From assembly GCF_009931435.1 (NCBI RefSeq), contig NZ_CP043414.1: 64,000 nt of DNA; one strand, given 5' to 3'. Below, piece by piece: positions 24,178 through 61,344 of the stretch; the first letter of the stretch is position 1, and each line of letters begins with the position of its first letter. The DNA comes from Escherichia coli (GTDB lineage Bacteria > Pseudomonadota > Gammaproteobacteria > Enterobacterales > Enterobacteriaceae). Both the position numbers and the translations under genes were made by a program. The notes below the pieces were generated by a model. The model worked only from the letters and a program-made list of their open reading frames with translations. It had not been told where the DNA came from and searched no databases.

Positions 24178-24234
24178 GCGCTTCTGATTCGATGATTAAA
24201 GGCCAGCCAGTAACACAACTGGCTGGCCTTTTTA

Positions 24235-25539
24235 TTACTTCTGCTTTAACGCCGCATACACCTGATCCACCACCCAACCATAAGTTGCAATCGGTAACTG
24301 ACCGCTTTCGAACATATTGGGATTTTTTTGTGGATCGGCAACTGGCGAATGTGGCTTGTTGCTTAACATCACAATCGCCATATGATTCACCGGATCGATA
24401 ACGGTCACCGTCCCGGTCCAGCCAGTGTGACCGTAGGTTTGCGGGCTTGCCAACGTGCCAAACGTCGGCGTCATGATGGCATTACCATTCACGCGCCAGC
24501 CGAGGCCAAAAGTGGCGTCTTCCTTTGAGCTGGTGGTGAACATCTTAACCGTTTCCGCACTGAACAGCGTCACATCACCATAGCCGCCGCCGTTCAGCAT
24601 CGTTTGCATTAACACCGCAATATCACCGGTATTGGAAAACAAACCTGCGTGCCCGGAAACGCCGCCCATCGAATAGAATGCTTTTTCATCGTGCACCTGA
24701 CCCCAGAGAGTGGAGGTGCGGATATTCGGGAAGTGAATCACGCCATCGCGGGTATTGCCGTTCAGTTCCGTGGCGGCAATTTGCTGTGGTTTAAAGCCTT
24801 TCAGCAGCGGATTAAACACCGTATGCGTCAGGCCGAGCGGGCGATAAATCGACTCTTCAACATAGCGGTCAAGCGGCTGACCGGTGACCGACTCGACGAT
24901 AAATCCAAGCAGCATATAATCGACATCGCTGTAGATATGCTTGCTGCCGGGCTGATACTCCAGCGGCGTGCGCTTGATCATCTCCAGCGTCTGGCCTTTA
25001 TCCTGGGAATATAACGCGCCCGCGACCGCTTTATTCGGATATTGCGGATCTGCCGGGAAACCGCCGCTGTGATGCAGCAGATCAGAAATCCGCAGCGTGT
25101 TTTTGCCTTTGATCGCATCGTTCGGGCTGTCGGCAAACCCTGGGATATATTTCGCAATCAGATCGTCAGGATGTAGTTTGCCTTCGCTCATCAGCTTTTG
25201 CAGGGCGAAGTTAGTGGCGTACATCTTGGTGTTTGAGGCCAGATCATACAGCGTCCCGGTGGTGGCTTTTAACGGCTGCGCCATTAACGCGCTGCCATCG
25301 TACTTTTTCGCCGCGCCCCAGGCTTTGCGATAAACAATCTGATTATCTTTTATAATCAGCAGGTTTACGCCGGGATAACCATCATCAACTTGCTGGCTAA
25401 TCCAGCGATCCATCTGATTAAGCCGTTCGACGTTAAACCCTGCTTTCTCTGGCGAACTTTCTGTCAGAACAGGGTATTTTGCGGCGCTGACGCTACAGCT
25501 GACAGCCAGCAGAGAAAAATAGAGCATTGTCCGTTTCAT
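24235..25539 (-). CDS. yfeW: penicillin-binding protein 4B-like beta-lactamase-fold protein
   Basis: 434 aa; signal peptide; class C beta-lactamase / PBP fold sequence. Confidence 0.85.
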   Translation of the reverse strand: MKRTMLYFSLLAVSCSVSAAKYPVLTESSPEKAGFNVERLNQMDRWISQQVDDGYPGVNLLIIKDNQIVYRKAWGAAKKYDGSALMAQPLKATTGTLYDLASNTKMYATNFALQKLMSEGKLHPDDLIAKYIPGFADSPNDAIKGKNTLRISDLLHHSGGFPADPQYPNKAVAGALYSQDKGQTLEMIKRTPLEYQPGSKHIYSDVDYMLLGFIVESVTGQPLDRYVEESIYRPLGLTHTVFNPLLKGFKPQQIAATELNGNTRDGVIHFPNIRTSTLWGQVHDEKAFYSMGGVSGHAGLFSNTGDIAVLMQTMLNGGGYGDVTLFSAETVKMFTTSSKEDATFGLGWRVNGNAIMTPTFGTLASPQTYGHTGWTGTVTVIDPVNHMAIVMLSNKPHSPVADPQKNPNMFESGQLPIATYGWVVDQVYAALKQK

Positions 25540-25541
25540 AA

Positions 25542-26966
<1,425 letters not shown>

Positions 26967-26969
26967 GGG

Positions 26970-27866
26970 TTATTCCTTGTCTAAAACCTGACGAATAAAG
27001 CCGCCGTGTTGATCCAGGCGTTTTTTTGCTTCTGCGGCATCGAGATTTTTCAGCACCATCACAATGGCCGTTTTACAGTTGCGCTCGCAAGCAATTAACG
27101 CCGCTTCCGCTTGTTCGGCGTTACATCCGGTGGCGTTTTTAACGATATTGACCTGGCGCACATGCAATTTTTCGTTGGTGGCGACCACATCGACCATCAG
27201 GTTGCCGAACACTTTGCCGGATTTAATCATCAGCCCGGTAGAGAGCATATTGAGCACCAGTTTCTGCGCTGTGCCTGCTTTCATTCGCGAAGAACCGGTA
27301 ACCACTTCGGCACCAACCACCGGAGTAATAGCAAACTCAGCGGTGGTTGAAACGGCGCTCCCCGGATTACAGGAAATGCCCACTGTGCGGCAACCGAGTT
27401 GGCGTGCGTATTCCAGCCCGGCAATCACATACGGTGTGCGACCGCTGGCAGCAATACCAACCACCACATCCTGTGCGGTTAAGCCGATATTTTTTAGATC
27501 GTTAACGCCACCTTCCCGGCTATCTTCTGCGCCTTCCACCGCGTGCTGAATGGCATATTCACCGCCAGCAATCAAACCAACCACCAGGCCCGGTTTGACG
27601 CCGTAGGTCGGCGGACATTCGCTGGCATCAAGAATACCCAGACGACCGGAAGTCCCCGCACCGATGTAAATCAGTCGACCGCCGCCGCTTACCTGGGCGT
27701 GGATAACATCGATCGCTGCGGCGATATCCGGCAGTACACGCTCAACGGCAAGTGGTACGGTTTTATCTTCATTGTTGATAATCCGGCACATTTCCAGCGT
27801 TGATACGCGGTCAATTTCAGCCGAAGCGGCATTCGAGCCTTCGGTAATCATCTTTTCAAGTTGCAT
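26970..27866 (-). CDS. murQ: N-acetylmuramic acid 6-phosphate etherase
   Basis: 298 aa SIS-domain protein directly upstream of murP. Confidence 0.9.
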
Positions 27867-28029
27867 CGGTGGTGACCTTACTATTTACGATCAAATAATT
27901 GCAGATGGATGGAATCATATATCCCGAATTGACAGACTTAAAGGAATCATTGAGTCTACACTCGCAGAGTGTGAAGAGCGTCATAAGAACTTAAGCGGAA
28001 TTTTTGCTGCCAGCCCAGGAGAGTGGAAG

Positions 28030-28887
28030 ATGTTGTACCTGACGAAAATACGCAATGCAGAAAGTGAATTTACCGAGAACGAGCAAAAAATAGCTGACTT
28101 TCTGCAGGCTAAAGTGAGTGAGCTGAAATCCGTCTCTTCGCGCAAGATGGCGAAACAGCTCGGCATCAGCCAGTCGAGTATTGTGAAGTTTGCCCAGAAG
28201 CTCGGCGCGCAAGGATTTACTGAATTGCGTATGGCGTTAATTGGCGAATACAGTGCCAGCCGGGAGAAAACGAATGCCACGGCGCTGCACTTGCACAGTT
28301 CGATTACCAGTGACGATTCGCTGGAAGTGATTGCCCGCAAACTGAATCGCGAAAAAGAGCTGGCACTGGAGCAAACCTGCGCCTTACTCGATTACGCGCG
28401 GCTGCAAAAAATCATTGAGGTCATCAGTAAAGCGCCGTTTATCCAGATAACAGGCCTGGGCGGGTCGGCGCTGGTGGGGCGCGATCTTTCATTCAAACTG
28501 ATGAAAATTGGTTATCGCGTGGCCTGTGAAGCCGACACGCACGTACAAGCTACCGTTTCCCAGGCGTTGAAAAAAGGTGATGTACAAATCGCTATCTCTT
28601 ACAGCGGCAGTAAAAAAGAGATTTTGCTATGCGCCGAGGCAGCGCGAAAGCAGGGGGCAACGGTGATTGCCATTACTTCACTGACTGACTCTCCGCTGCG
28701 GCGGTTGGCACATTTCACCCTCGATACCGTTTCTGGTGAAACCGAATGGCGTAGCTCGTCGATGTCCACCCGCACGGCGCAAAATTCGGTTACCGATTTA
28801 CTGTTTGTTGGGCTGGTACAACTTAATGATGTCGAGTCATTGAAAATGATTGAGCGCAGCAGTGAGCTAACACAACGCCTGAAATGA
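28030..28887 (+). CDS. murR: RpiR-family transcriptional repressor MurR
   Basis: 285 aa from ATG at 28030 ([14 protein letters not shown]...); HTH plus SIS domain; divergent from murQP. Confidence 0.88.
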
Positions 28888-29015
28888 TGCATAAAGCAGC
28901 GACTGGATTGAGATTTTCCTGAATTAGTGAGCTGATCCGCAGCAATATTTTGTTTATCCTGTATTTTCAGAGGGAATGGAGTGTAACGCTCTGTATTAAC
29001 AAGGAGAGCATTAAA

Positions 29016-29807
29016 ATGGGTAAACTCACGGGCAAGACAGCACTGATTACGGGCGCATTGCAGGGAATTGGCGAAGGAATTGCCAGAACTTTTGCGCGTC
29101 ATGGCGCAAACCTAATCTTGCTGGATATCTCCCCTGAGATCGAAAAGCTGGCGGACGAACTGTGTGGTCGTGGTCATCGCTGTACGGCGGTTGTCGCCGA
29201 TGTGCGTGACCCGGCATCGGTAGCCGCAGCTATCAAGCGCGCAAAGGAAAAAGAAGGGCGCATTGATATCCTGGTGAATAACGCAGGCGTTTGTCGTCTG
29301 GGCAGTTTCCTCGATATGAGCGATGAAGATCGCGATTTCCATATTGATATCAATATAAAAGGCGTATGGAACGTCACAAAGGCGGTGCTGCCGGAGATGA
29401 TTGCCCGCAAAGATGGTCGCATTGTGATGATGTCTTCGGTCACTGGCGATATGGTGGCCGATCCGGGCGAAACGGCGTATGCCTTAACGAAAGCGGCGAT
29501 TGTTGGCCTGACTAAATCGCTGGCGGTGGAGTACGCGCAGTCTGGTATTCGCGTTAACGCCATCTGCCCAGGATATGTTCGCACGCCAATGGCGGAAAGC
29601 ATCGCGCGTCAGTCGAACCCGGAGGATCCGGAATCGGTGCTGACTGAAATGGCGAAAGCAATCCCGTTGCGTCGCCTCGCCGATCCGCTGGAAGTTGGCG
29701 AACTGGCGGCCTTCCTCGCATCCGATGAATCCAGCTATTTAACCGGTACACAGAATGTGATTGATGGCGGCAGCACACTGCCGGAGACGGTTAGCGTCGG
29801 CATCTGA
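29016..29807 (+). CDS. ucpA: short-chain dehydrogenase/reductase UcpA
   Basis: 263 aa from ATG at 29016 (MGKLTGKTALITGALQGIG...), Rossmann TGxxxGxG motif. Confidence 0.88.
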   Translation: MGKLTGKTALITGALQGIGEGIARTFARHGANLILLDISPEIEKLADELCGRGHRCTAVVADVRDPASVAAAIKRAKEKEGRIDILVNNAGVCRLGSFLDMSDEDRDFHIDINIKGVWNVTKAVLPEMIARKDGRIVMMSSVTGDMVADPGETAYALTKAAIVGLTKSLAVEYAQSGIRVNAICPGYVRTPMAESIARQSNPEDPESVLTEMAKAIPLRRLADPLEVGELAAFLASDESSYLTGTQNVIDGGSTLPETVSVGI

Positions 29808-29819
29808 TTCACCTCTGTT

Positions 29820-29852
29820 TCCTCCCTGCATGTGTGGGGAGGATTTCGTCTT
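29820..29852 (+). terminator. putative intrinsic terminator after ucpA
   Basis: tcctccc / tgcatgtgt / ggggagga hairpin followed by U-rich tract, 13 nt after the ucpA stop. Confidence 0.4.
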
Positions 29853-29899
29853 GAACTAAGTTCACCAGGCTATTTTATTTGTCATTTTGGCCCCGGGCA

Positions 29900-30110
29900 G
29901 TGCTCGAAATCCTCACGTACTATGTGTACGCTCCGGTTTCTCCGCGCTGTTCGTGTCCAAACTGACTGCAACAATTACGCCTGTTGAACCAAGTTCTTAT
30001 TCCCTTTTCAACTTCCAAATCACCAAACGGTATATAAAACCGTTACTCCTTTCACGTCCGTTATAAATATGATGACTAATAGAAAGTCATTTAATTAATA
30101 AGGGTGCGCA
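29900..30110 (+). promoter_or_regulatory. cysP promoter region (expected CysB-dependent); exact sites not resolved
   Basis: AT-rich 200 bp upstream of cysP; by established knowledge the cysPUWAM promoter is CysB-activated. Confidence 0.3.
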
Positions 30111-31127
30111 ATGGCCGTTAACTTACTGAAAAAGAACTCACTCGCGCTGGTCGCTTCTCTGCTGCTGGCGGGCCATGTACAGGCAACGGAACTGCTGAAC
30201 AGTTCTTATGACGTCTCCCGCGAGCTGTTTGCTGCCCTGAATCCGCCGTTTGAGCAACAATGGGCCAAAGACAACGGCGGCGATAAACTGACGATAAAAC
30301 AATCTCATGCCGGGTCATCAAAACAGGCGCTGGCGATTTTGCAGGGCTTAAAAGCGGACGTTGTCACTTATAACCAGGTGACCGACGTACAAATCCTGCA
30401 TGATAAAGGCAAGCTGATCCCGGCTGACTGGCAGTCGCGCCTGCCGAATAACAGCTCGCCGTTTTACTCCACCATGGGCTTCCTGGTGCGTAAGGGCAAC
30501 CCGAAGAATATCCATGACTGGAACGATCTGGTGCGCTCCGACGTGAAGCTGATTTTCCCGAACCCAAAAACCTCCGGTAACGCGCGTTATACCTATCTGG
30601 CGGCATGGGGCGCAGCGGATAAAGCTGACGGTGGCGATAAAGCCAAAACCGAACAGTTTATGACCCAGTTCCTGAAAAACGTGGAAGTGTTCGATACCGG
30701 CGGTCGTGGCGCAACTACCACCTTTGCCGAGCGCGGGCTGGGCGATGTGCTGATTAGCTTCGAATCGGAAGTGAACAACATCCGCAAGCAGTATGAAGCG
30801 CAGGGCTTTGAAGTGGTGATTCCGAAAACCAACATTCTGGCGGAATTCCCGGTGGCGTGGGTCGATAAAAACGTGCAGGCCAACGGCACGGAAAAAGCGG
30901 CAAAAGCTTACCTGAACTGGCTCTACAGCCCACAGGCGCAAACGATCATTACCGATTATTACTACCGCGTGAATAACCCGGAAGTCATGGACAAACTGAA
31001 AGACAAATTCCCGCAGACCGAGCTGTTTCGCGTGGAAGATAAATTTGGCTCCTGGCCGGAAGTGATGAAAACCCACTTCAACAGCGGCGGCGAGTTAGAC
31101 AAGCTGTTAGCGGCGGGGCGTAACTAA
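30111..31127 (+). CDS. cysP: thiosulfate/sulfate-binding periplasmic protein
   Basis: 338 aa; signal peptide; sulfate-binding protein family. Confidence 0.92.
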
Positions 31128-31960
31128 TGTTTGCAGTTTCTTCCAGACGCGTGCTGCCGGGCTTTACCTTAAGCCTCGGCACCAGTCTGCTGTTTGTGTG
31201 CCTGATTTTGCTGCTGCCGCTCTCCGCGCTGGTGATGCAACTGGCTCAGATGAGCTGGGCGCAGTACTGGGAGGTGATCACCAACCCGCAGGTGGTCGCG
31301 GCCTATAAAGTGACGCTGCTGTCGGCGTTTGTGGCATCGATTTTTAACGGCGTTTTCGGCCTGCTGATGGCGTGGATTTTAACCCGCTATCGCTTTCCGG
31401 GCCGCACGCTGCTTGATGCGCTGATGGATTTACCGTTTGCGCTACCAACGGCGGTAGCAGGTTTAACGCTGGCCTCGCTCTTTTCCGTGAACGGTTTTTA
31501 CGGTGAATGGCTGGCGAAGTTTGATATCAAAGTCACCTATACGTGGCTTGGAATCGCGGTGGCGATGGCCTTTACCAGCATTCCATTTGTGGTGCGTACC
31601 GTTCAGCCGGTGCTGGAAGAGTTAGGCCCGGAATATGAAGAAGCGGCGGAAACGCTCGGCGCAACGCGCTGGCAGAGTTTCTGCAAAGTGGTGCTGCCGG
31701 AGCTTTCTCCGGCGCTGGTGGCGGGCGTGGCGCTGTCGTTTACCCGTAGTCTCGGTGAGTTTGGTGCGGTGATTTTTATCGCCGGGAACATCGCCTGGAA
31801 GACGGAAGTGACGTCGCTGATGATTTTTGTTCGCTTACAGGAGTTTGATTACCCGGCGGCGAGCGCAATTGCTTCGGTGATACTCGCGGCATCACTGCTG
31901 CTGCTGTTCTCAATTAACACTCTGCAAAGTCGCTTTGGTCGGCGTGTGGTAGGTCATTAA
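31127..31960 (+). CDS. cysU: sulfate/thiosulfate ABC transporter permease CysU (CysT)
   Basis: 277 aa ABC permease; stop/start overlap with cysP. Confidence 0.92.
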   Translation: MFAVSSRRVLPGFTLSLGTSLLFVCLILLLPLSALVMQLAQMSWAQYWEVITNPQVVAAYKVTLLSAFVASIFNGVFGLLMAWILTRYRFPGRTLLDALMDLPFALPTAVAGLTLASLFSVNGFYGEWLAKFDIKVTYTWLGIAVAMAFTSIPFVVRTVQPVLEELGPEYEEAAETLGATRWQSFCKVVLPELSPALVAGVALSFTRSLGEFGAVIFIAGNIAWKTEVTSLMIFVRLQEFDYPAASAIASVILAASLLLLFSINTLQSRFGRRVVGH

Positions 31961-32835
31961 TGGCGGAAGTGACACAGTTGAAGCGTTATGACGCGCGCCC
32001 GATTAACTGGGGCAAATGGTTTCTGATTGGCATCGGGATGCTGGTTTCGGCGTTCATCCTGCTGGTGCCGATGATTTACATCTTCGTGCAGGCATTCAGC
32101 AAAGGGCTGATGCCGGTGTTACAGAATCTTGCTGACCCGGACATGCTGCACGCTATTTGGCTGACGGTGATGATCGCGCTGATTGCCGTCCCGGTAAACC
32201 TGGTGTTCGGGATTCTGCTGGCGTGGCTGGTGACGCGCTTTAACTTCCCCGGACGCCAGTTATTGCTGACGCTGCTGGACATTCCGTTTGCCGTGTCGCC
32301 GGTGGTTGCCGGTCTGGTCTATCTGCTGTTCTACGGCTCTAATGGCCCGCTCGGCGGCTGGCTGGATGAACATAATCTGCAAATTATGTTCTCCTGGCCG
32401 GGAATGGTGCTGGTCACCATCTTCGTGACCTGTCCGTTTGTGGTGCGCGAGCTGGTGCCAGTGATGTTAAGCCAGGGCAGCCAGGAAGACGAAGCGGCGA
32501 TTTTGCTTGGCGCGTCTGGCTGGCAGATGTTCCGCCGCGTCACGCTGCCGAACATCCGCTGGGCGCTGCTTTATGGCGTGGTGCTGACCAACGCCCGCGC
32601 GATTGGCGAGTTTGGCGCGGTGTCGGTGGTTTCCGGCTCGATTCGCGGTGAAACACTTTCGCTGCCGTTACAGATTGAATTGCTGGAGCAGGACTACAAC
32701 ACCGTCGGCTCCTTTACCGCCGCGGCGCTGTTGACGCTGATGGCGATTATCACCCTGTTTTTAAAGAGTATGTTGCAGTGGCGCCTGGAGAATCAGGAAA
32801 AACGCGCGCAACAGGAGGAACATCATGAGCATTGA
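31960..32835 (+). CDS. cysW: sulfate/thiosulfate ABC transporter permease CysW
   Basis: 291 aa ABC permease. Confidence 0.92.
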
Positions 32836-33922
32836 GATTGCCAATATTAAGAAGTCGTTTGGTCGCACCCAGGTGCTGAACGATATCTCACTGGATATTC
32901 CTTCTGGTCAGATGGTCGCGTTGCTGGGGCCGTCCGGTTCCGGGAAAACCACGCTGCTGCGGATTATCGCCGGGCTGGAGCATCAAACCAGCGGGCATAT
33001 TCGTTTCCACGGCACCGACGTCAGCCGCCTGCATGCACGCGATCGCAAAGTCGGTTTTGTGTTCCAGCACTATGCGCTGTTCCGCCATATGACGGTATTC
33101 GACAATATCGCCTTCGGCCTGACGGTGCTGTCGCGTCGCGAGCGCCCGAATGCCGCAGCCATCAAAGCGAAAGTGACAAAATTGCTGGAAATGGTGCAGC
33201 TTGCGCATCTGGCGGATCGTTATCCGGCCCAGCTTTCCGGCGGGCAGAAACAGCGTGTGGCACTGGCGCGCGCGCTGGCTGTGGAACCGCAAATTCTGCT
33301 GCTTGATGAACCGTTTGGTGCGCTGGATGCGCAGGTGCGTAAAGAGCTGCGTCGCTGGCTGCGTCAACTCCATGAAGAGCTGAAATTCACCAGCGTGTTC
33401 GTGACCCATGACCAGGAAGAAGCGATGGAAGTCGCCAACCGCGTGGTGGTCATGAGCCAGGGCAATATCGAACAGGCCGATGAACCGGATCAGGTTTGGC
33501 GCGAGCCGGCGACCCGTTTTGTGCTGGAGTTTATGGGCGAAGTGAACCGCTTGCAGGGAACGATTCGCGGTGGGCAGTTCCACGTTGGTGCGCACCGCTG
33601 GCCGCTGGGATACACCCCTGCGTATCAGGGGCCGGTGGATCTCTTCCTGCGCCCGTGGGAAGTGGATATCAGCCGCCGCACAAGCCTCGATTCGCCGCTG
33701 CCGGTGCAGGTGCTGGAAGCCAGCCCGAAAGGTCACTACACCCAATTAGTCGTGCAGCCGCTGGGGTGGTATGAAGATCCGCTCACCGTAGTAATGCGTG
33801 GTGATGATGCGCCGGTGCGCGGCGATCGTTTGTTCGTCGGGCTACAACATGCTCGACTGTATAACGGCGACGAGCGTATTGAAACACGCGATGAGGAACT
33901 TGCTCTCGCACAAAGCGCCTGA
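32825..33922 (+). CDS. cysA: sulfate/thiosulfate ABC transporter ATP-binding protein CysA
   Basis: 365 aa; Walker [18 protein letters not shown] signature. Confidence 0.93.
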
Positions 33923-33943
33923 TAGGTTGAGTTAATGTTAAAC

Positions 33944-33977
33944 GCCCGGAGGCGCTTCCCGCGATCCGGGCTTTTTA
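33944..33977 (+). terminator. intrinsic terminator after cysA
   Basis: gcccggaggcgcttcccgcgatccgggc hairpin followed by ttttt. Confidence 0.55.
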
Positions 33978-33997
33978 ATGGCAAGGTTTTGTAACCT

Positions 33998-34034
33998 GTA
34001 GGCCTGATAAGACGCGTAAACGTCGCATCAGGCA
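33998..34034. repeat. REP element between cysA and cysM
   Basis: gtaggcctgataagacgcg...cgtcgcatcaggc palindromic REP. Confidence 0.75.
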
Positions 34035-34056
34035 ACACCACGTATGGACAGAGATC

Positions 34057-34968
34057 GTGAGTACATTAGAACAAACAATAGGCAATACGCCTCTGGTGAA
34101 ATTACAACGAATGGGGCCGGATAACGGCAGTGAAGTGTGGTTAAAGCTGGAAGGCAATAATCCGGCCGGTTCGGTGAAAGATCGTGCGGCGCTTTCGATG
34201 ATCGTCGAGGCGGAAAAGCGCGGGGAAATTAAACCGGGTGATGTGTTAATCGAAGCCACCAGTGGTAACACCGGGATTGCGCTGGCAATGATTGCCGCGC
34301 TAAAAGGCTATCGCATGAAATTGCTGATGCCCGATAACATGAGCCAGGAGCGTCGCGCGGCGATGCGTGCCTACGGTGCGGAGCTGATTCTGGTCACCAA
34401 AGAGCAGGGCATGGAAGGTGCGCGCGATCTGGCGCTGGAGATGGCGAATCGTGGCGAAGGCAAGCTGCTCGATCAGTTTAATAATCCCGATAATCCTTAT
34501 GCGCATTACACCACCACCGGGCCGGAAATCTGGCAGCAAACCGGCGGTCGCATTACCCATTTTGTCTCCAGCATGGGGACGACCGGTACGATTACCGGCG
34601 TGTCGCGCTTTATGCGCGAGCAATCCAAACTGGTGACCATTGTTGGTCTGCAGCCGGAAGAGGGCAGCAGCATTCCCGGCATTCGTCGCTGGCCTGAGGA
34701 ATATCTGCCAGGCATCTTCAACGCTTCGCTGGTGGATGAGGTGCTGGATATTCATCAGCGTGATGCGGAAAACACCATGCGCGAACTGGCAGTGCGGGAA
34801 GGGATTTTCTGCGGTGTAAGTTCCGGTGGCGCGGTTGCCGGAGCACTGCGGGTGGCAAAAGCCAACCCCGGCGCTGTAGTGGTGGCGATCATCTGCGATC
34901 GCGGCGATCGCTACCTTTCTACCGGGGTGTTTGGGGAAGAGCACTTTAGTCAGGGGGCGGGGATTTAA
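34057..34968 (+). CDS. cysM: cysteine synthase B (O-acetylserine sulfhydrylase B)
   Basis: 303 aa; PLP-enzyme motifs SVKDR, GNTG. Confidence 0.93.
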   Translation: MSTLEQTIGNTPLVKLQRMGPDNGSEVWLKLEGNNPAGSVKDRAALSMIVEAEKRGEIKPGDVLIEATSGNTGIALAMIAALKGYRMKLLMPDNMSQERRAAMRAYGAELILVTKEQGMEGARDLALEMANRGEGKLLDQFNNPDNPYAHYTTTGPEIWQQTGGRITHFVSSMGTTGTITGVSRFMREQSKLVTIVGLQPEEGSSIPGIRRWPEEYLPGIFNASLVDEVLDIHQRDAENTMRELAVREGIFCGVSSGGAVAGALRVAKANPGAVVVAIICDRGDRYLSTGVFGEEHFSQGAGI

Positions 34969-34970
34969 GA

Positions 34971-35363
<393 letters not shown>

Positions 35364-35364
35364 G

Positions 35365-35406
<42 letters not shown>

Positions 35407-35442
35407 GATGCGATGAGGATCATCGGCAAGGAGAAAAATTAA

Positions 35443-36294
35443 ATGAGTAGTTTGTTGTTGTTTAACGATAAGAGCAGAGCGTTGCAGGCGGATGTTGTCG
35501 CGGTGCAGTCGCAGGTGGTGTATGGCAGCGTAGGCAACAGCATCGCCGTGCCTGCTATTAAACAGAACGGCCTGAATGTCTTTGCCGTGCCGACCGTGTT
35601 GCTGAGCAATACGCCGCATTATCACACGTTCTACGGTGGTGCGATTCCGGACGAATGGTTTAGCGGCTATTTGCGTGCGCTTCAGGAGCGTGATGCGCTG
35701 CGCCAGCTGCGCGCTGTCACCACGGGCTATATGGGAACGGCATCGCAAATCAAAATCCTTGCCGAGTGGCTGACTGCGCTACGCAAAGACCATCCTGACT
35801 TATTGATTATGGTCGATCCGGTGATTGGCGATATTGATAGCGGAATTTATGTCAAACCTGACCTTCCTGAGGCATACCGACAATATTTACTGCCTCTGGC
35901 GCAGGGTATTACGCCTAATATCTTTGAGCTGGAAATCCTGACCGGTAAAGATTGCCGCGATCTCGACAGTGCCATTGCCGCAGCAAAAAGTTTGCTTTCA
36001 GACACCTTAAAATGGGTGGTCATTACCAGCGCCTCCGGTAACGAAGAAAATCAGGAGATGCAGGTGGTGGTGGTCAGTGCCGACAGCGTGAATGTCATTT
36101 CCCATTCCCGGGTTAAAACTGACCTGAAAGGGACTGGCGACCTGTTTTGTGCTCAGCTTATCAGTGGTTTGCTGAAAGGGAAGGCGTTAACCGATGCGGT
36201 GCACCGCGCGGGGTTGCGCGTACTGGAAGTGATGCGCTATACCCAGCAGCATGAGAGCGATGAATTGATTTTGCCGCCGCTGGCTGAAGCATAA
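35443..36294 (+). CDS. pdxK: pyridoxal/pyridoxine/pyridoxamine kinase
   Basis: 283 aa ribokinase-fold PdxK sequence. Confidence 0.9.
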
Positions 36295-36325
36295 AAAAAT
36301 GGCGCCGATGGGCGCCATTTTTCTC
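36294..36325. terminator. bidirectional intrinsic terminator shared by pdxK (+) and crr (-)
   Basis: aaaaaaa-tggcgcc-gatg-ggcgcca-ttttt: perfect hairpin flanked by A-tract and T-tract between convergent genes. Confidence 0.7.
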
Positions 36326-36336
36326 TGCGGCAAGAA

Positions 36337-36846
36337 TTACTTCTTGATGCGGATAACCGGGGTTTCACCCACAGTCACGCTACCGGACAGTTTGATCAGT
36401 TCTTTGATTTCGTCCATGTTGGAGATAACAACCGGAGTCAGGGTAGACTTGGCTTTCTCTTCCAGCAGCGGCAGATCGAATTCAATCACGGTATCACCAA
36501 CTTTCACGCGCTGACCTTCTTCAGCAATACGCTTGAAGCCTTCGCCTTTCAGTTCAACGGTGTCGATACCGAAGTGGACGAACAGTTCAACGCCGCTATC
36601 AGATTCGATAGAGAACGCGTGGTTGGTCTCAAAGATTTTACCAATGGTGCCGTCTACAGGCGCGACCATTTTGTTTCCAGTTGGTTTGATAGCAATGCCA
36701 TCACCAACGATTTTTTCCGCAAAAACGACATCCGGCACGTCTTCGATATTGACGATCTCGCCAGAGAGCGGAGCAATGATCTCAATAGTTCCGGTATCCT
36801 TCTTGTCGTCGGAAACCAGAGATTTCAGTTTATCGAACAAACCCAT
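36337..36846 (-). CDS. crr: PTS glucose-specific EIIA (EIIA-Glc)
   Basis: 169 aa; EIIA-Glc sequence. Confidence 0.95.
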
Positions 36847-36886
36847 GATCTTCTCCTAAGCAGTAAATTGGGCCGCATCTCGTGGA

Positions 36887-38614
36887 TTAGCAGATTGTTT
36901 TTTCTTCAATGAACTTGTTAACCAGCGTCATTAACTCGTCCGTTGTCGGTTGAGCAAGAGCCTGCTCTGCTAACACCTTCGCATCTTCGAAGTTCGTGTT
37001 ACGGATAATCTTCTTAATGCGCGGGATAGAAATGGCGCTCATAGAGAATTCGTCCAGACCCATCCCCAGCAACAGAAGTGTAGCACGTTCATCGCCAGCA
37101 AGCTCACCACACATGCCAGTCCATTTGCCTTCAGCATGAGAAGCATCAATAACTTGCTTGATCAAGTTCAGCACGGACGGTGACATTGGCTGGTAAAGGT
37201 GTGAAATCATATCATTACCACGGTCAACTGCCAGAGTGTACTGCGTTAAATCATTGGTGCCGATACTAAAGAAATCAACTTCTTTGGCTAAATGACGTGC
37301 AATTGTTGCGGCAGCCGGTGTTTCCACCATTACGCCGATTTCAATTGACTCGTCAAACGCTTTACCTTCGTCGCGCAGTTCCTGTTTGTAGATTTCGATC
37401 TCTTTGCGCAGTGCACGCACTTCTTCAACAGAGATGATCATCGGGAACATGATGCGCAATTTACCGAAAGCAGAGGCACGCAGGATAGCGCGGAGCTGAT
37501 CGCGCAGGATCTCTTTACGATCCATCGCGATACGGATAGCGCGCCAGCCGAGGAACGGGTTCTCTTCTTTCGGGAAGTTCATGTATGGCAGCTCTTTGTC
37601 GCCGCCGATGTCCATGGTACGAACGATAACCGCCTGAGAGCCACACGCTTCAGCTACTGCTTTGTAAGCAGCAAACTGTTCTTCTTCAGTGGGCAGCGTG
37701 TCGCGGTCCATGAACAGGAACTCAGTACGATAAAGACCAACGCCTTCAGCGCCGTTACGCTCAGCACCTTCAACGTCACGAACCGTACCGATGTTAGCGC
37801 ACACTTCTACCTGGTGACCGTCCAGCGTAATAGCTGGCAGATCTTTCAGTTTAGCAAGCTCTGCTTTTTCAGAAGCTACTTGCTCCTGAACAGCGCGCAT
37901 TTTATCAATAACTTCGTTGGTTGGATTGACGTAAACCTGATTATTTACGGCATCCAGAATCAGATAGTCGTCATTTTTCACCTGAGAGGTGACGCTACCG
38001 GTACCCACGATAGCAGGCAGTTCCAGAGAACGCGCCATGATAGAGGTGTGGGAAGTACGGCCACCCGCGTCGGTGATGAAACCCAGCACCTTCTTCAGGT
38101 TCAGCTGTGCGGTTTCGGACGGCGTCAGGTCAGCGGCAACCAGAATGACTTCATCCTGAATAGCGCTCAGGTCGATAATCTTCAGGCCCAGGATGTTGCG
38201 CAGCAGGCGCTTACCGATATCACGTACGTCAGCCGCACGCTCTTTCAGGTATTCATCATCCAGCTCTTCCAGGGCAGAAGCCTGACCTTCGATAACTTCA
38301 TGAGCAGCTGCGTCAGCTGTCATGTGCTTATCTTTAATCAGGGCTATGATTTCCTGCTCCAGCTCCTCATCTTCGAGCAGCATAATATGCCCTTCAAAGA
38401 TGGCTTCTTTTTCTTCACCGAACGTTTCACCAGCTTTCGTTTTGATCGTTTCCAGCTGGGCTGATGCCTTGGCACGACCGCTCAGAAAACGTTCAACTTC
38501 CTGATCAACCTGGTCGGCAGAAATTTTTTTCCGGTCAATGACAATTTCGTCTTCTTTCAGAAGCAGAGCTTTACCGAAAGCGATACCCGGGGATGCTAAA
38601 ATGCCTGAAATCAT
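36887..38614 (-). CDS. ptsI: PTS enzyme I
   Basis: 575 aa; PEP-utilising enzyme family. Confidence 0.95.
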
Positions 38615-38658
38615 AACCCTACCTTACTTGTGACTGATTTTTAAAAGAACCCGGGAAA

Positions 38659-38916
38659 TTACTCGAGTTCCGCCATCAGTTTAACCAGATGTTCAACCGC
38701 TTTCTGTTCGTCTTCGCCTTCTGCGGAGATAGTCACAACGGTACCTTGAGTCAGGCCCAGAGTCTGCAGTTTAAACAGGCTTTTCGCGCTGGCGCTTTTG
38801 CCGTTGGAAGTCACAGTAATTTCAGAAGTGAAGCCCTTAGCTTCTTTTACAAACTGGGCAGCAGGGCGGGTGTGCAGACCGTTCGGAGCGGTAATGGTAA
38901 CTTCTTGCTGGAACAT
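38659..38916 (-). CDS. ptsH: PTS phosphocarrier protein HPr
   Basis: 85 aa [23 protein letters not shown]... with active-site His15. Confidence 0.95.
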
Positions 38917-39249
38917 TGTATTTCCCCAACTTATAGGTTTAGTGTTGTGGAACTAAAGTCTAGCCTGGCGGTTCGACTTTAGCCTGTATTGTTAGCGCCA
39001 GTTTTTAACAGACGCGACGCACGAAGAGCGCAATACAGTCCTTTGCTGGCGGGTGTTGACCGCTGACGTTTCGTACGTCATTAAACATTATGCCGCTAAA
39101 GGAAGAATTGAACCAAATCATAAAATCGATTCAGCTATGGCTTTTCCTGTAACGATTAATTTCGCGCATCAAAATAATTAGTCTGGTTAAATACCAGTTC
39201 CGACAGGCTGAATCAATGCCAGGAGGGGCGAAAGTTTGAAGCAGGCCAC
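38917..39249 (-). promoter_or_regulatory. ptsH-ptsI-crr promoter region; sites not individually resolved
   Basis: 330 bp noncoding region upstream of ptsH; by established knowledge it contains CRP- and Mlc-controlled promoters. Confidence 0.3.
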
Positions 39250-39278
39250 AAAAAAGCACCTGAAAAGGTGCTTTTTTA
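39250..39278 (-). terminator. intrinsic terminator after cysK
   Basis: aaaaagcacc-tgaaaa-ggtgctttttt hairpin 22 nt downstream of the cysK stop on the minus strand. Confidence 0.65.
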
Positions 39279-39299
39279 CGCATTTTTAACAAGCTGGCA

Positions 39300-40271
39300 T
39301 TACTGTTGCAATTCTTTCTCAGTGAAGAGATCGGCAAACAATGCGGTGCTTAAATAACGCTCACCCGATGACGGTAGAATAACCACAATATTCTTGTTGG
39401 TAAAGCTTTCATCTTCTTGTAGTTTCAACGCTGCAGCAACAGCTGCTCCAGAAGAGATACCTGCAAGAATACCTTCCTCTTCCATCAGACGACGCGCGGT
39501 AGAAATAGCTTCTTCATTGGTGATGCCAATGACTTTATCGACCAGCTTGAGATCAAGGTTAGCCGGGATAAAACCAGCGCCAATCCCCTGAATTTTATGC
39601 GGGCCAGGTTTAATCTCTTCACCTGCCAGCGCCTGGGCGATAACCGGAGAATCGGTTGGCTCCACGGCGACAGAGATGAGATCAGTCTTGCCTTTGGTGC
39701 CTTTAATGTAGCGGCTGACGCCGGTCAGCGTACCGCCAGTCCCAACACCAGCAATAAATACATCAACCTGACCGTCGGTATCTTCCCAGATCTCCGGACC
39801 GGTGGTTTTTTCGTGAATTTCAGGGTTTGCCGGATTGCTGAATTGTTGCAGCAGTAGGTATTTCTCTGGATTGCTGGCGACAATTTCTTCTGCTTTTTGG
39901 ATTGCGCCTTTCATGCCTTTAGCACCTTCGGTCAGCACCAGGTTTGCACCTAACGCTTTCAGCAGCTTGCGGCGTTCAATACTCATGGTTTCTGGCATGG
40001 TCAGGGTGAGTTTGTAACCGCGAGCGGCAGCCACATAGGCCAGTGCAATCCCGGTATTACCGCTGGTTGGTTCAACCAGTTCAACGCCTGGTTTCAGCAC
40101 GCCGCGCTTTTCGGCATCCCAAATCATATTGGCACCGATACGGCACTTAACGCTGAAGCTGGGGTTACGAGATTCCACCTTCGCCAGAATGCGTCCGTTA
40201 CCGATGCGATTCAGGCGAACCAGCGGTGTGTGACCGATAGTCAGCGAGTTATCTTCAAAAATCTTACTCAT
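39300..40271 (-). CDS. cysK: cysteine synthase A (O-acetylserine sulfhydrylase A)
   Basis: 323 aa; PLP-enzyme sequence. Confidence 0.95.
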
Positions 40272-40455
40272 GGCCTGTCCTTAACTGTATGAAATTGGGA
40301 TACAACAGGTAGCATACCCGCTCAGAGAATATGCGGAAGTAAGGATTTAGCATATCTATATGCAGAAGGGAAATAATGACATGCAAGATGGAATAAGGGG
40401 TGGCATAAGCCACCCCTGTTTCACACAAACGGTTTACAAAATAACCGGTAGATTG

Positions 40456-41217
40456 TTACCGCCACATCGCGTGTTTATCGCGATAGCAATCGACCCACAT
40501 CGCCGTCGCGCCACAAACGGCAACGGGCATAATGAACAGATTAAGCAGCGGGATCATCGTAAACAGGCTGGTTAAAGCACCAAACTGCATATTGGTGATT
40601 TTGCGTGTGCGCAGGGCGGTGCGCATCTCTTTAAACGGCACTTTGTGGTTATCGAAGGGGTAATCGCAATACTGGATGGCTAACATCCAGGCACTAAACA
40701 GGAACCACAGTACCGGCGCGACGGTTTGCCCAATGCCAGGGATGAAGTAAAGAATTAGCAATACAATCGCCCGTGGCAGATACCAGGCAAATTTTTGCCA
40801 TTCGCGTTTCATGATTCGCGGCACATCTTTCATGATACCGAAAATTCCGGTATCTGGCGGTGTAGCGCCAGTCAGTCTTGCTTCCAGTTGTTCAGCCAAT
40901 AAGCCGTTGAACGGAGCAGCAATCCAGTTAGCAATCGTTGAGAAGAAATAGCCAAACACTAACAGCACAGAGATGACAGCCAGGGGCCACAACAGATAGC
41001 TCAGCCATTGTAACCAGTCCGGAACATAACTCATGAGAGTCGGGATCCAGACATCGAGTTGCGTAAAGAGCCACCAGAATGCGCCCCCCATCAACAAAAT
41101 ATTGACCAACAGCGGTAAAATAACAAAACGCCGAATCCCAGGTTGCGAGACGAGCTTCCAGCCTTGCGCAAAATAGTAAAAACCGCTGCGTGGGGCAGAT
41201 GTGAATGATGAAACCAT
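40456..41217 (-). CDS. cysZ: sulfate transporter CysZ
   Basis: 253 aa polytopic membrane protein. Confidence 0.9.
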
Positions 41218-41446
41218 AATCAGGATGAGCTCCTTTTGACCAATCCCAGGAAAATTCTGCGTATTTTACCGGGTAATTGCGCAATGGACAGTTAGGATAT
41301 GTTCGAAAAAACAGCAAAAAGCACGATTTCATCTATCTTTGTGCTGTGAAAGTTAATAGTGCACTTGCACTTGAGGTAATCGGCAAATACTCTTAGTGAG
41401 TAAATGTTTGCCGTGGTGGCAAGGTGTTAGAACAACAGAGAATATA

Positions 41447-42445
41447 ATGATGCAGGATTTGCGTCTGATATTAATCATTGTTGGCGCGATCGCCATAATC
41501 GCTTTACTGGTACATGGTTTCTGGACCAGCCGTAAAGAACGATCTTCTATGTTCCGCGATCGGCCATTAAAACGAATGAAGTCAAAACGTGACGACGATT
41601 CTTATGACGAGGATGTCGAAGATGATGAGGGCGTTGGTGAGGTTCGTGTTCACCGCGTGAATCATGCCCCGGCTAACGCCCAGGAGCATGAGGCTGCTCG
41701 TCCGTCGCCGCAACACCAGTACCAACCGCCTTATGCGTCTGCGCAGCCGCGTCAACCGGTCCAGCAGCCGCCTGAAGCGCAGGTACCGCCGCAACATGCT
41801 CCGCGTCCAACGCAGCCGGTGCAGCAACCCGTGCAGCAGCCTGCCTATCAGCCTCAGCCTGAACAGCCGTTGCAGCAGCCAGTTTCGCCACAGGTCGCGT
41901 CAGCGCCGCAGCCAGTGCATTCAGCACCGCAACCGGCACAACAGGCTTTCCAGCCTGCAGAACCTGTAGCGGCACCACAGCCTGAGCCTGTAGCGGAACC
42001 GGCTCCAGTTATGGATAAACCGAAGCGCAAAGAAGCGGTGATTATCATGAACGTCGCGGCGCATCACGGTAGCGAGTTAAACGGTGAACTGCTTCTTAAC
42101 AGCATTCAACAAGCGGGCTTCATTTTTGGCGATATGAACATTTACCATCGTCATCTTAGCCCGGATGGCAGCGGCCCGGCGTTATTCAGCCTGGCGAATA
42201 TGGTGAAACCGGGAACCTTCGATCCTGAAATGAAGGATTTCACTACTCCGGGTGTCACTATCTTTATGCAGGTACCGTCTTACGGTGACGAGCTGCAGAA
42301 CTTTAAGCTGATGCTGCAATCTGCGCAGCATATTGCCGATGAAGTGGGCGGTGTAGTGCTTGACGATCAGCGCCGTATGATGACTCCGCAGAAATTGCGC
42401 GAGTACCAGGACATCATCCGCGAAGTCAAAGACGCCAACGCCTGA
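41447..42445 (+). CDS. zipA: cell division protein ZipA
   Basis: 332 aa from ATG at 41447 ([26 protein letters not shown]...): N-terminal TM anchor, long P/Q-rich linker, C-terminal FtsZ-binding domain. Confidence 0.9.
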
Positions 42446-42506
42446 TACACTTAAGGCAAATTAACTCCTCTTCGAACCCCCGCTTGTCGGGGGTTTTTAG
42501 CATTGA

Positions 42507-44531
<2,025 letters not shown>

Positions 44532-61255: not shown

Positions 61256-61344
<89 letters not shown>

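Follow-up and report, generated by a model that had tools for sequence, protein, structure and literature searches.

Partial intrinsic terminators are known inside operons, among them the rplL–rpoB attenuator and the terminator T1 between rpsU and dnaG. As for REP elements, REP-dependent differential expression has reportedly been found at malE–malF, and transcription attenuation is said to be associated with BIMEs. Here we analyse the junction of cysA and cysM in a stretch of 64,000 nt of Escherichia coli DNA (contig NZ_CP043414.1; the whole stretch is called the window below). cysP, cysU and cysW precede the two genes on the plus strand, and the 134-nt spacer between cysA and cysM (33923–34056) contains a GC-rich hairpin, a tract of five T residues and a REP (Table 1). 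The initial annotation noted that cysM is usually counted in the cysPUWAM operon, which is indeed how RegulonDB lists it, and read the hairpin and the REP together as a sign of partial termination, with cysM expressed at a lower level or from its own start.

Table 1. Features of the cysA–cysM junction and of three comparison loci. Positions refer to the window unless a locus is named.
Feature	Position	Strand	Basis
cysA coding sequence	32825–33922	+	ORF list; RefSeq annotation of matching E. coli records
−35-like hexamer TTGCTC	33900–33905	+	inside the cysA codons CTT GCT CTC; 17 nt before TAGGTT
Candidate extended −10, TGaTAGGTT	33920–33928	+	cysA stop TGA plus 6 nt; order-wide conservation
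Inferred cysM transcription start	33935	+	homology transfer from MG1655 2539704 (minus strand)
Intrinsic-terminator-like hairpin and T5	33944–33971 and 33972–33976	+	fold, K-12 identity, order-wide conservation
Single REP	33997–34034		z = −4.6; second copy in window; partial naRNA4 matches
cysM translation-initiation region, weak Shine-Dalgarno GGACAGAG and GTG	34035–34059	+	sequence
cysM coding sequence (cysteine synthase B), GTG start	34057–34968	+	ORF list; annotation of matching records
Loci with an alpha-L-rhamnosidase gene as neighbour	L013 1–2430; L022 1–2433; L018 1–1842		

The counterpart of the spacer in MG1655 (2539584–2539716, minus strand) differs from it at few positions, three of them in the REP and none in the hairpin or T tract, and there are no indels around the inferred cysM start. 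Since the spacer is nearly identical to that of K-12, findings made in K-12 were carried over to the window. Relative to the window, 5/134 spacer positions differ in an E. coli representative and 8/134 in E. albertii, compared with ~30% of flanking 4-fold degenerate sites. Conservation of the whole spacer and leader within Escherichia would fit functional constraint.

The surroundings of the spacer also differ from MG1655. The stops of cysM (34968) and of the convergent gene yfeK (34971, minus strand) are 2 nt apart, and no terminator was evident between the two (window 34966–34973); in MG1655 the gap is ~190 nt and contains two REPs and yfeS, all missing in the window. Identity to MG1655 is mosaic, at 94.7% from 24200 to 34973 (the murR side through cysM) and 97.6% from 34978 to 42691 (yfeK to the cysK side). 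Only 1 of 5426 complete E. coli genomes matches 33823–34156 with ≥99% identity. These observations suggest that the cys region of the window may be an imported or an ancient divergent allele.

The hairpin begins 22 nt past the cysA stop. Its GC-rich stem of 7 bp is formed by GCCCGGA (33944–33950) pairing with TCCGGGC (33965–33971), and encloses an inner 3-bp helix (GCG/CGC). TTTTTAAT abuts the 3′ side of the stem from 33972, giving a short tract of 5 U, which would fit a partial termination efficiency. The initial annotation had placed hairpin and T tract at 33944–33977; both are present, and the T run ends at 33976, one base earlier. By itself the fold is only marginal (ΔG −19.1 kcal/mol; z = −1.96; 9/200 shuffles fold equally well). 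A generic terminator scan did not call it, because the rule used required loops of 3–8 nt and the stem has an internal loop. It is the position of the hairpin and its conservation that set it apart from chance.

Conservation was assessed on 80 CysM loci from species-representative genomes, in 59 of which cysA lies directly upstream. In these 59 loci the cysA–cysM spacer is at least 50 nt long, mostly ~66–140 nt, and the genes are never coupled. A terminator was scored as a hairpin with ΔG ≤ −9 abutting a T-run (≥5 T in 7) in spacers of ≤400 nt (n = 57). By this measure at least 45/57 spacers (≥79%) contain a hairpin and T-run, compared with 3.4% of mononucleotide shuffles, and on inspection several of the 12 scan-negative spacers also show a hairpin with a T-rich tail. 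The distance from T-run to cysM start has a median of 25 nt. The stems vary by genus: GCCCGG in Escherichia, Citrobacter and Lelliottia, GCGGCC in Cedecea, Siccibacter and Shimwellia, GGCAACCC in Serratia, GGGCGGGA in Pantoea-type loci, TGCTCATCTC in Photorhabdus and GGTGGCC in Yersinia. A compensatory change is seen at stem pair 7, which is A–T in Escherichia and T–A in Citrobacter and Lelliottia. As the stems differ while their place and fold are kept, it is the structure that is conserved, not the sequence. A hairpin and T-run conserved in this way is the signature expected of a selected intrinsic terminator.

Some loci depart from the common layout. In Pectobacterium zantedeschiae (L064, upstream of 2501), the end of a CysW-like ORF (..FIKSAIQWRVKRQMNKH*) is followed by a hairpin, T7 and cysM, with no cysA between. 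The spacers of three Yersinia and Serratia plymuthica loci (L037, L041 and L050) are 227–233 nt long. A mobile repeat of another kind separates their cysA stop from the terminator, as a GC-rich insertion of ~100–130 nt that includes ..CGCTCCG(A/G)CGGC..GCCG(T/C)TACGACCC....

The REP reported by the initial annotation is borne out. Its core (34002–34033) has z = −4.6, with 0/200 shuffles as stable, and is flanked by a TGTAG tail from 33997. The arms (GCCTGATAAGACGCG/CGTCGCATCAGGC) are those of the MG1655 REPs downstream of cysM, and the element, which agrees with the published REP consensus, is of the Z type. A further copy with 1 mismatch lies at 61313–61344, where 0 are expected by chance, so that the 64-kb window has two copies in total. 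Rfam naRNA4, a REP-derived family, gives sub-threshold matches to the element. The REP is extragenic yet lies on the transcribed strand, between cysA and cysM.

A REP of the E. coli type between terminator and cysM is found only in Escherichia-like loci; it is absent from the 66–72 nt spacers of several Citrobacter, Lelliottia, Cedecea, Siccibacter, Shimwellia and Pantoea/Erwinia loci. From this distribution, the REP is best seen as a later insertion in the Escherichia lineage, which would place it outside the conserved arrangement and corrects the earlier pairing of terminator and REP. Enterobacter, some Citrobacter, Pseudescherichia and relatives have spacers of 115–127 nt with an inverted pair of genus-type REPs (GCCCGGTGGCGCTGCGCTTACCGGGCCTACA ... 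TGTAGGCCGGGTAAGCG..CCCGGC; loci L012, L014, L017, L020, L054, L019, L015 and L004), in which the T tract sits on the second arm; here the REP itself appears to serve as the terminator. Pseudocitrobacter faecalis DSM 27453 (L005, 1407–1565) has an Escherichia-like spacer, in which the terminator hairpin is identical and two REPs of the E. coli type occur, and CysA and CysM of this locus are 97–98% identical to those of the window, which points to horizontal transfer or else to a mislabelled or contaminated assembly.

A candidate sigma-70 promoter of the extended −10 type, weak by its sequence, overlaps the cysA stop codon and was overlooked by the initial annotation. It fits the consensus poorly, at 3/6 positions in both the −35 and the −10 hexamer, and a generic promoter scan of 33000–35000 found nothing, TTGCTC-17-TGaTAGGTT included. 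A search of the literature on a cysM promoter or terminator in E. coli also returned nothing relevant. The motif is conserved across the order. cysA ends in TGA in 55/59 loci, and after the stop the pattern TAnnTT is kept (T1 51/59, A2 51/59, T5 50/59 and T6 48/59; further positions, 0.28–0.43). The key positions of the extended −10 (TGn, T−12, A−11 and T−7) are conserved in 48–52 of 60 sequences. The −35 region, TTGC(T/C)n, lies 17 nt upstream within cysA codons; its middle T is a synonymous position and is kept in 45/60 sequences (0.75), compared with 0.33–0.57 for the other third positions of the last 16 cysA codons, the final GCC excepted. TTG-N20-TGnTAnnnT stands in register in 41/60 sequences. 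The final codon, GCC (33917–33919), has the most conserved synonymous site of the last 16 codons, with a third-position C in 54/60 sequences (0.90), and this base directly precedes the TG of the extended −10.

The motif also persists before cysM in four loci that lack cysA as the adjacent gene (L013, L018, L022 and L063), three of them from Enterobacteriaceae and one from a Pectobacterium. An alpha-L-rhamnosidase gene replaces cysA upstream of cysM in Kluyvera genomosp. 1, Enterobacteriaceae RIT691 and Enterobacter sp. ENT03, and these loci (L013, L018 and L022) keep the motif as TAGACC-17-TGATA(G/A)(G/C)TT, in which TAGACC is the −35-like hexamer, together with the hairpin, the T tract and the GTG. 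A tandem stop codon was considered as the cause of the TA after TGA and rejected: 17/60 sequences have T rather than G or A at the third base, Pantoea/Erwinia-type loci read TAT, which is not a stop, and T5/T6 and the motif persist where no cysA ends.

Published transcripts of MG1655 bear on both promoter and terminator. SMRT-Cappable-seq, which captures 5′-triphosphate ends and reads full-length cDNA, was applied to MG1655 in M9 and rich medium (PMC6131387). Its Supplementary Data 2 lists cysM (b2421) alone as a ‘novel’ operon with a transcription start site (TSS) at 2539704 on the reverse strand, and cysPUWA (b2425–b2422) from a TSS at 2543558, flagged as ‘ShorterEnd’ relative to the cysPUWAM operon of RegulonDB (PMC6131387). 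Position 2539704 is the thirteenth base past the cysA stop, exactly 7 nt past TAGGTT and 9 nt before the hairpin. Thus the suggestion that cysM has a start of its own agrees with a mapped site, although this lies upstream of the hairpin and not after it. We infer that the promoter is active in this strain too.

These data have a defined reach. Starts needed >4 reads, and operons lacking a defined termination site were delimited by their longest read (PMC6131387), so that even the longest cysP-initiated read did not include a complete cysM. The cDNA was size-selected for >1 kb, which makes short terminated products invisible and leaves 5-kb molecules under-sampled (PMC6131387); the absence of a cysPUWAM read therefore weighs little. 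The cysM start comes from one dataset, and its coordinates (U00096.3 and U00096.2) are absent from the Cappable-seq 2016 files, a possibly incomplete TSS list.

Mapped 3′ ends are silent on the terminator. No 3′ end is found at MG1655 2539663–67 in the curated Term-seq (Adams 2021; LB and M63) or TRS tables, and the 3′-end tables of Adams et al. 2021 list none for cysA or cysM; low cys expression or calling thresholds could be the reason. Termination at the T tract is nevertheless probable from the anatomy of the site, its conservation across the order and the short cysPUWA transcript. The interpretation given in the initial annotation is partly supported and holds in the main, apart from the place of the start and of the REP. 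Further upstream, the same study reported a strong Rho-dependent termination region inside cysP, at MG1655 2543521 (minus strand; ~30118 in the window), with a Rho score of 17 and p = 5.6e-46 (Adams et al. 2021).

Expression data from other strains suggest a transcriptional uncoupling of cysM. In an APEC lsrR mutant cysUWA increased ~9-fold while cysM was unchanged, and in Salmonella overexpressing oatA, cysB, cysK, cysD and cysI increased 3–5-fold and cysM did not. In contrast, cysM decreased together with other cys genes in an RNase III mutant, and thus some co-regulation with the cys genes persists. At the level of translation, 56/59 Enterobacterales loci begin cysM with GTG and 2/59 with TTG (loci L003–L074). 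The Shine-Dalgarno sequence is weak throughout, and the use of a non-ATG start is conserved across the order.

We propose, with a probability of about 0.6, that cysM is held at a low level, and in part uncoupled from the rest of the operon, by a leaky internal terminator together with a weak internal promoter. A rho-independent terminator after cysA would stop part of the polymerase arriving from the CysB-activated cysP promoter, yielding cysPUWA mRNA. The sigma-70 extended −10 promoter (TTGCTC-17-TGaTAGGTT), with the cysA stop as its TG, would start transcripts at ~33935 and, being weak and constitutive, would supply a basal flow into cysM. Every cysM message, from either route, would then have to read through the terminator, while the GTG start and weak Shine-Dalgarno sequence would hold translation low. 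The net outcome would be a low level of cysM, buffered against swings of the transport genes. The REP would be at most an additional stable stem-loop that may protect 3′ ends or add pausing, presumably dispensable to the arrangement; any role of the REP here is itself conjectural.

Because the start lies upstream of the hairpin, and the T-run is ~25 nt from cysM in most genera, read-through is needed, and the terminator must be incomplete. An efficient block of transcripts from cysP is hard to square with the passage of those begun 9 nt upstream, and this puzzle leaves a small probability for promoter-specific or regulated read-through. Thus it is conceivable, though quite improbable, that the hairpin stops polymerases from cysP and passes those that began ~9 nt upstream (through retained sigma-70, perhaps, or because there is almost no upstream RNA), or that a factor acting in trans, and linked to the supply of thiosulfate or sulfide, modulates read-through. 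Were this so, induction of the operon would leave cysM output unaffected, and an RNA of ~42 nt would arise as by-product.

The same elements can be read in other ways. The hairpin could be a stability or processing element within a true five-gene cysPUWAM transcript that is read through fully, where hairpin and REP block 3′-to-5′ exonucleases after endonucleolytic cleavage and the cysPUWA segment outlives the cysM segment, as at malE–malF. REPs and GC-rich stem-loops are established barriers that protect 3′ ends, the Term-seq tables have no 3′ end at the T tract, and the short cysPUWA transcript could be a decay product, since SMRT-Cappable-seq reads 3′ ends of any origin. An exonuclease barrier, however, needs no T-run, and one follows the stem in at least 45/57 loci; the REP is missing from most genera, and cysM mRNA did not track cys induction in two studies. 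We therefore regard a pure stability element as unlikely, if credible. If the operon ended at cysA in an efficient insulating terminator, cysM would be served by a separate, unrecognised promoter after it, possibly in or beside the REP. This would agree with the ‘ShorterEnd’ flag of cysPUWA, and there is room for it in Escherichia, where owing to the REP 80 nt separate the T tract from cysM. Such a promoter was looked for and rejected: the scan of 33000–35000 was empty, the mapped start is upstream of the hairpin and in most genera only ~25 nt remain between T-run and GTG, which makes an insulator highly improbable. It is harder still to believe that the sequences are chance passengers, the hairpin a REP-like palindrome that has decayed and the T tract fortuitous. 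The hairpin of Enterobacter, Citrobacter and Pseudescherichia is one arm of a genus-type REP pair, and the E. coli hairpin alone reaches only z = −1.96, yet hairpin and T-run recur in ≥79% of loci with unrelated stems (3.4% of shuffles), and synonymous sites vary far more than the spacer does.

Attenuation that is conditional or promoter-specific, through a leader-type switch controlled by a protein, a small RNA or a metabolite signal (thiosulfate or sulfide, for instance), would explain why the promoter is always upstream of the terminator, with no room downstream in most genera, why full-length reads of cysM alone begin upstream of the hairpin while cysP-initiated reads stop short, and why cysM stays flat when cysUWA increases ~9-fold. 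In a variant of this idea polymerases that begin 9 nt upstream have an intrinsically greater chance of read-through, again with a by-product of ~42 nt; early transcribed sequences can reportedly alter termination efficiency. Against a switch, no anti-terminator structure fits a 9-nt leader, the stretch from start to hairpin lacks sequence conservation across genera and ranges from ~4 to >170 nt, no short RNA or 3′ end has been reported, and a constitutively leaky terminator accounts for the same data. A comparison with leader-type attenuators found the 9-nt leader in Escherichia, leaders of unconserved sequence and length elsewhere, and a REP match as the only one in Rfam. We consider an attenuator distinctly unlikely, and a riboswitch-like leader was rejected on similar grounds (no Rfam match other than the REP, and no space for an alternative structure).

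Two further ideas about the short leader were set aside. An ATG at the inferred start (33935–37) opens a leaderless frame of 19 codons through the hairpin, where a ribosome might block termination. In place of this unconserved ATG, E. albertii has ATC and C. werkmanii and E. cloacae (L009 and L012) have ATA, while in L005 a stop follows directly (ATG TAA); the end of the frame also shifts between the window and MG1655. The hairpin might also act as a 5′-terminal stabiliser of cysM mRNA, and in Escherichia an extended A-tract/U-tract stem would leave 2 unpaired 5′ nt; in other genera, the distance of ~4 to >170 nt from promoter to hairpin argues against this.

The leaky terminator and weak promoter that we favour are ordinary operon fine-tuning and introduce no new kind of element or mechanism; the added finding is the conserved weak promoter. 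If the proposal holds, cysPUWAM is better described as cysPUWA plus a semi-independent cysM, with expression of a distal gene limited more than once, by a promoter on the stop codon and a terminator and then by a weak ribosome-binding site with its GTG start, an arrangement conserved across the order. This is relevant to operon annotation, to the reading of cys-regulon transcriptomes, where cysM often fails to follow cysPUWA, and to the engineering of thiosulfate-based cysteine production.

How does the junction compare with the systems described earlier? The REP resembles the REP and BIME elements of Enterobacteriaceae, as it is an imperfect palindrome of ~35 nt (GCCTGAT...ATCAGGC) with a CTAC tail, extragenic and repeated in the window. 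Unlike a BIME, it is a single REP and not a pair, and it lies in the 5′ leader of cysM behind a separate terminator, 79 nt from the cysA stop. As at malE–malF, a REP stands between an abundant upstream and a presumably less abundant downstream cistron; in contrast to malE–malF, the conserved element is the hairpin with its T tract, and most genera have the same layout without this type of REP. The candidate promoter is built like other extended −10 (TGn) sigma-70 promoters, with a TG one base before TAnnnT, a weak −35 spaced by 17 nt and transcription beginning 7 nt further on. It differs from typical ones in that a stop codon supplies the TG with its first two bases and the −35 lies in coding sequence. 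There is also a likeness to the rplL–rpoB attenuator and to T1 of rpsU–dnaG, where a GC-rich hairpin with a U tract likewise lies between co-directional genes of one annotated operon, the distal gene is lowered and an internal promoter contributes, as would be the case at cysA–cysM. Unlike in those two systems, the putative internal promoter of cysM precedes the probable terminator and shares bases with the stop codon of the gene before it.
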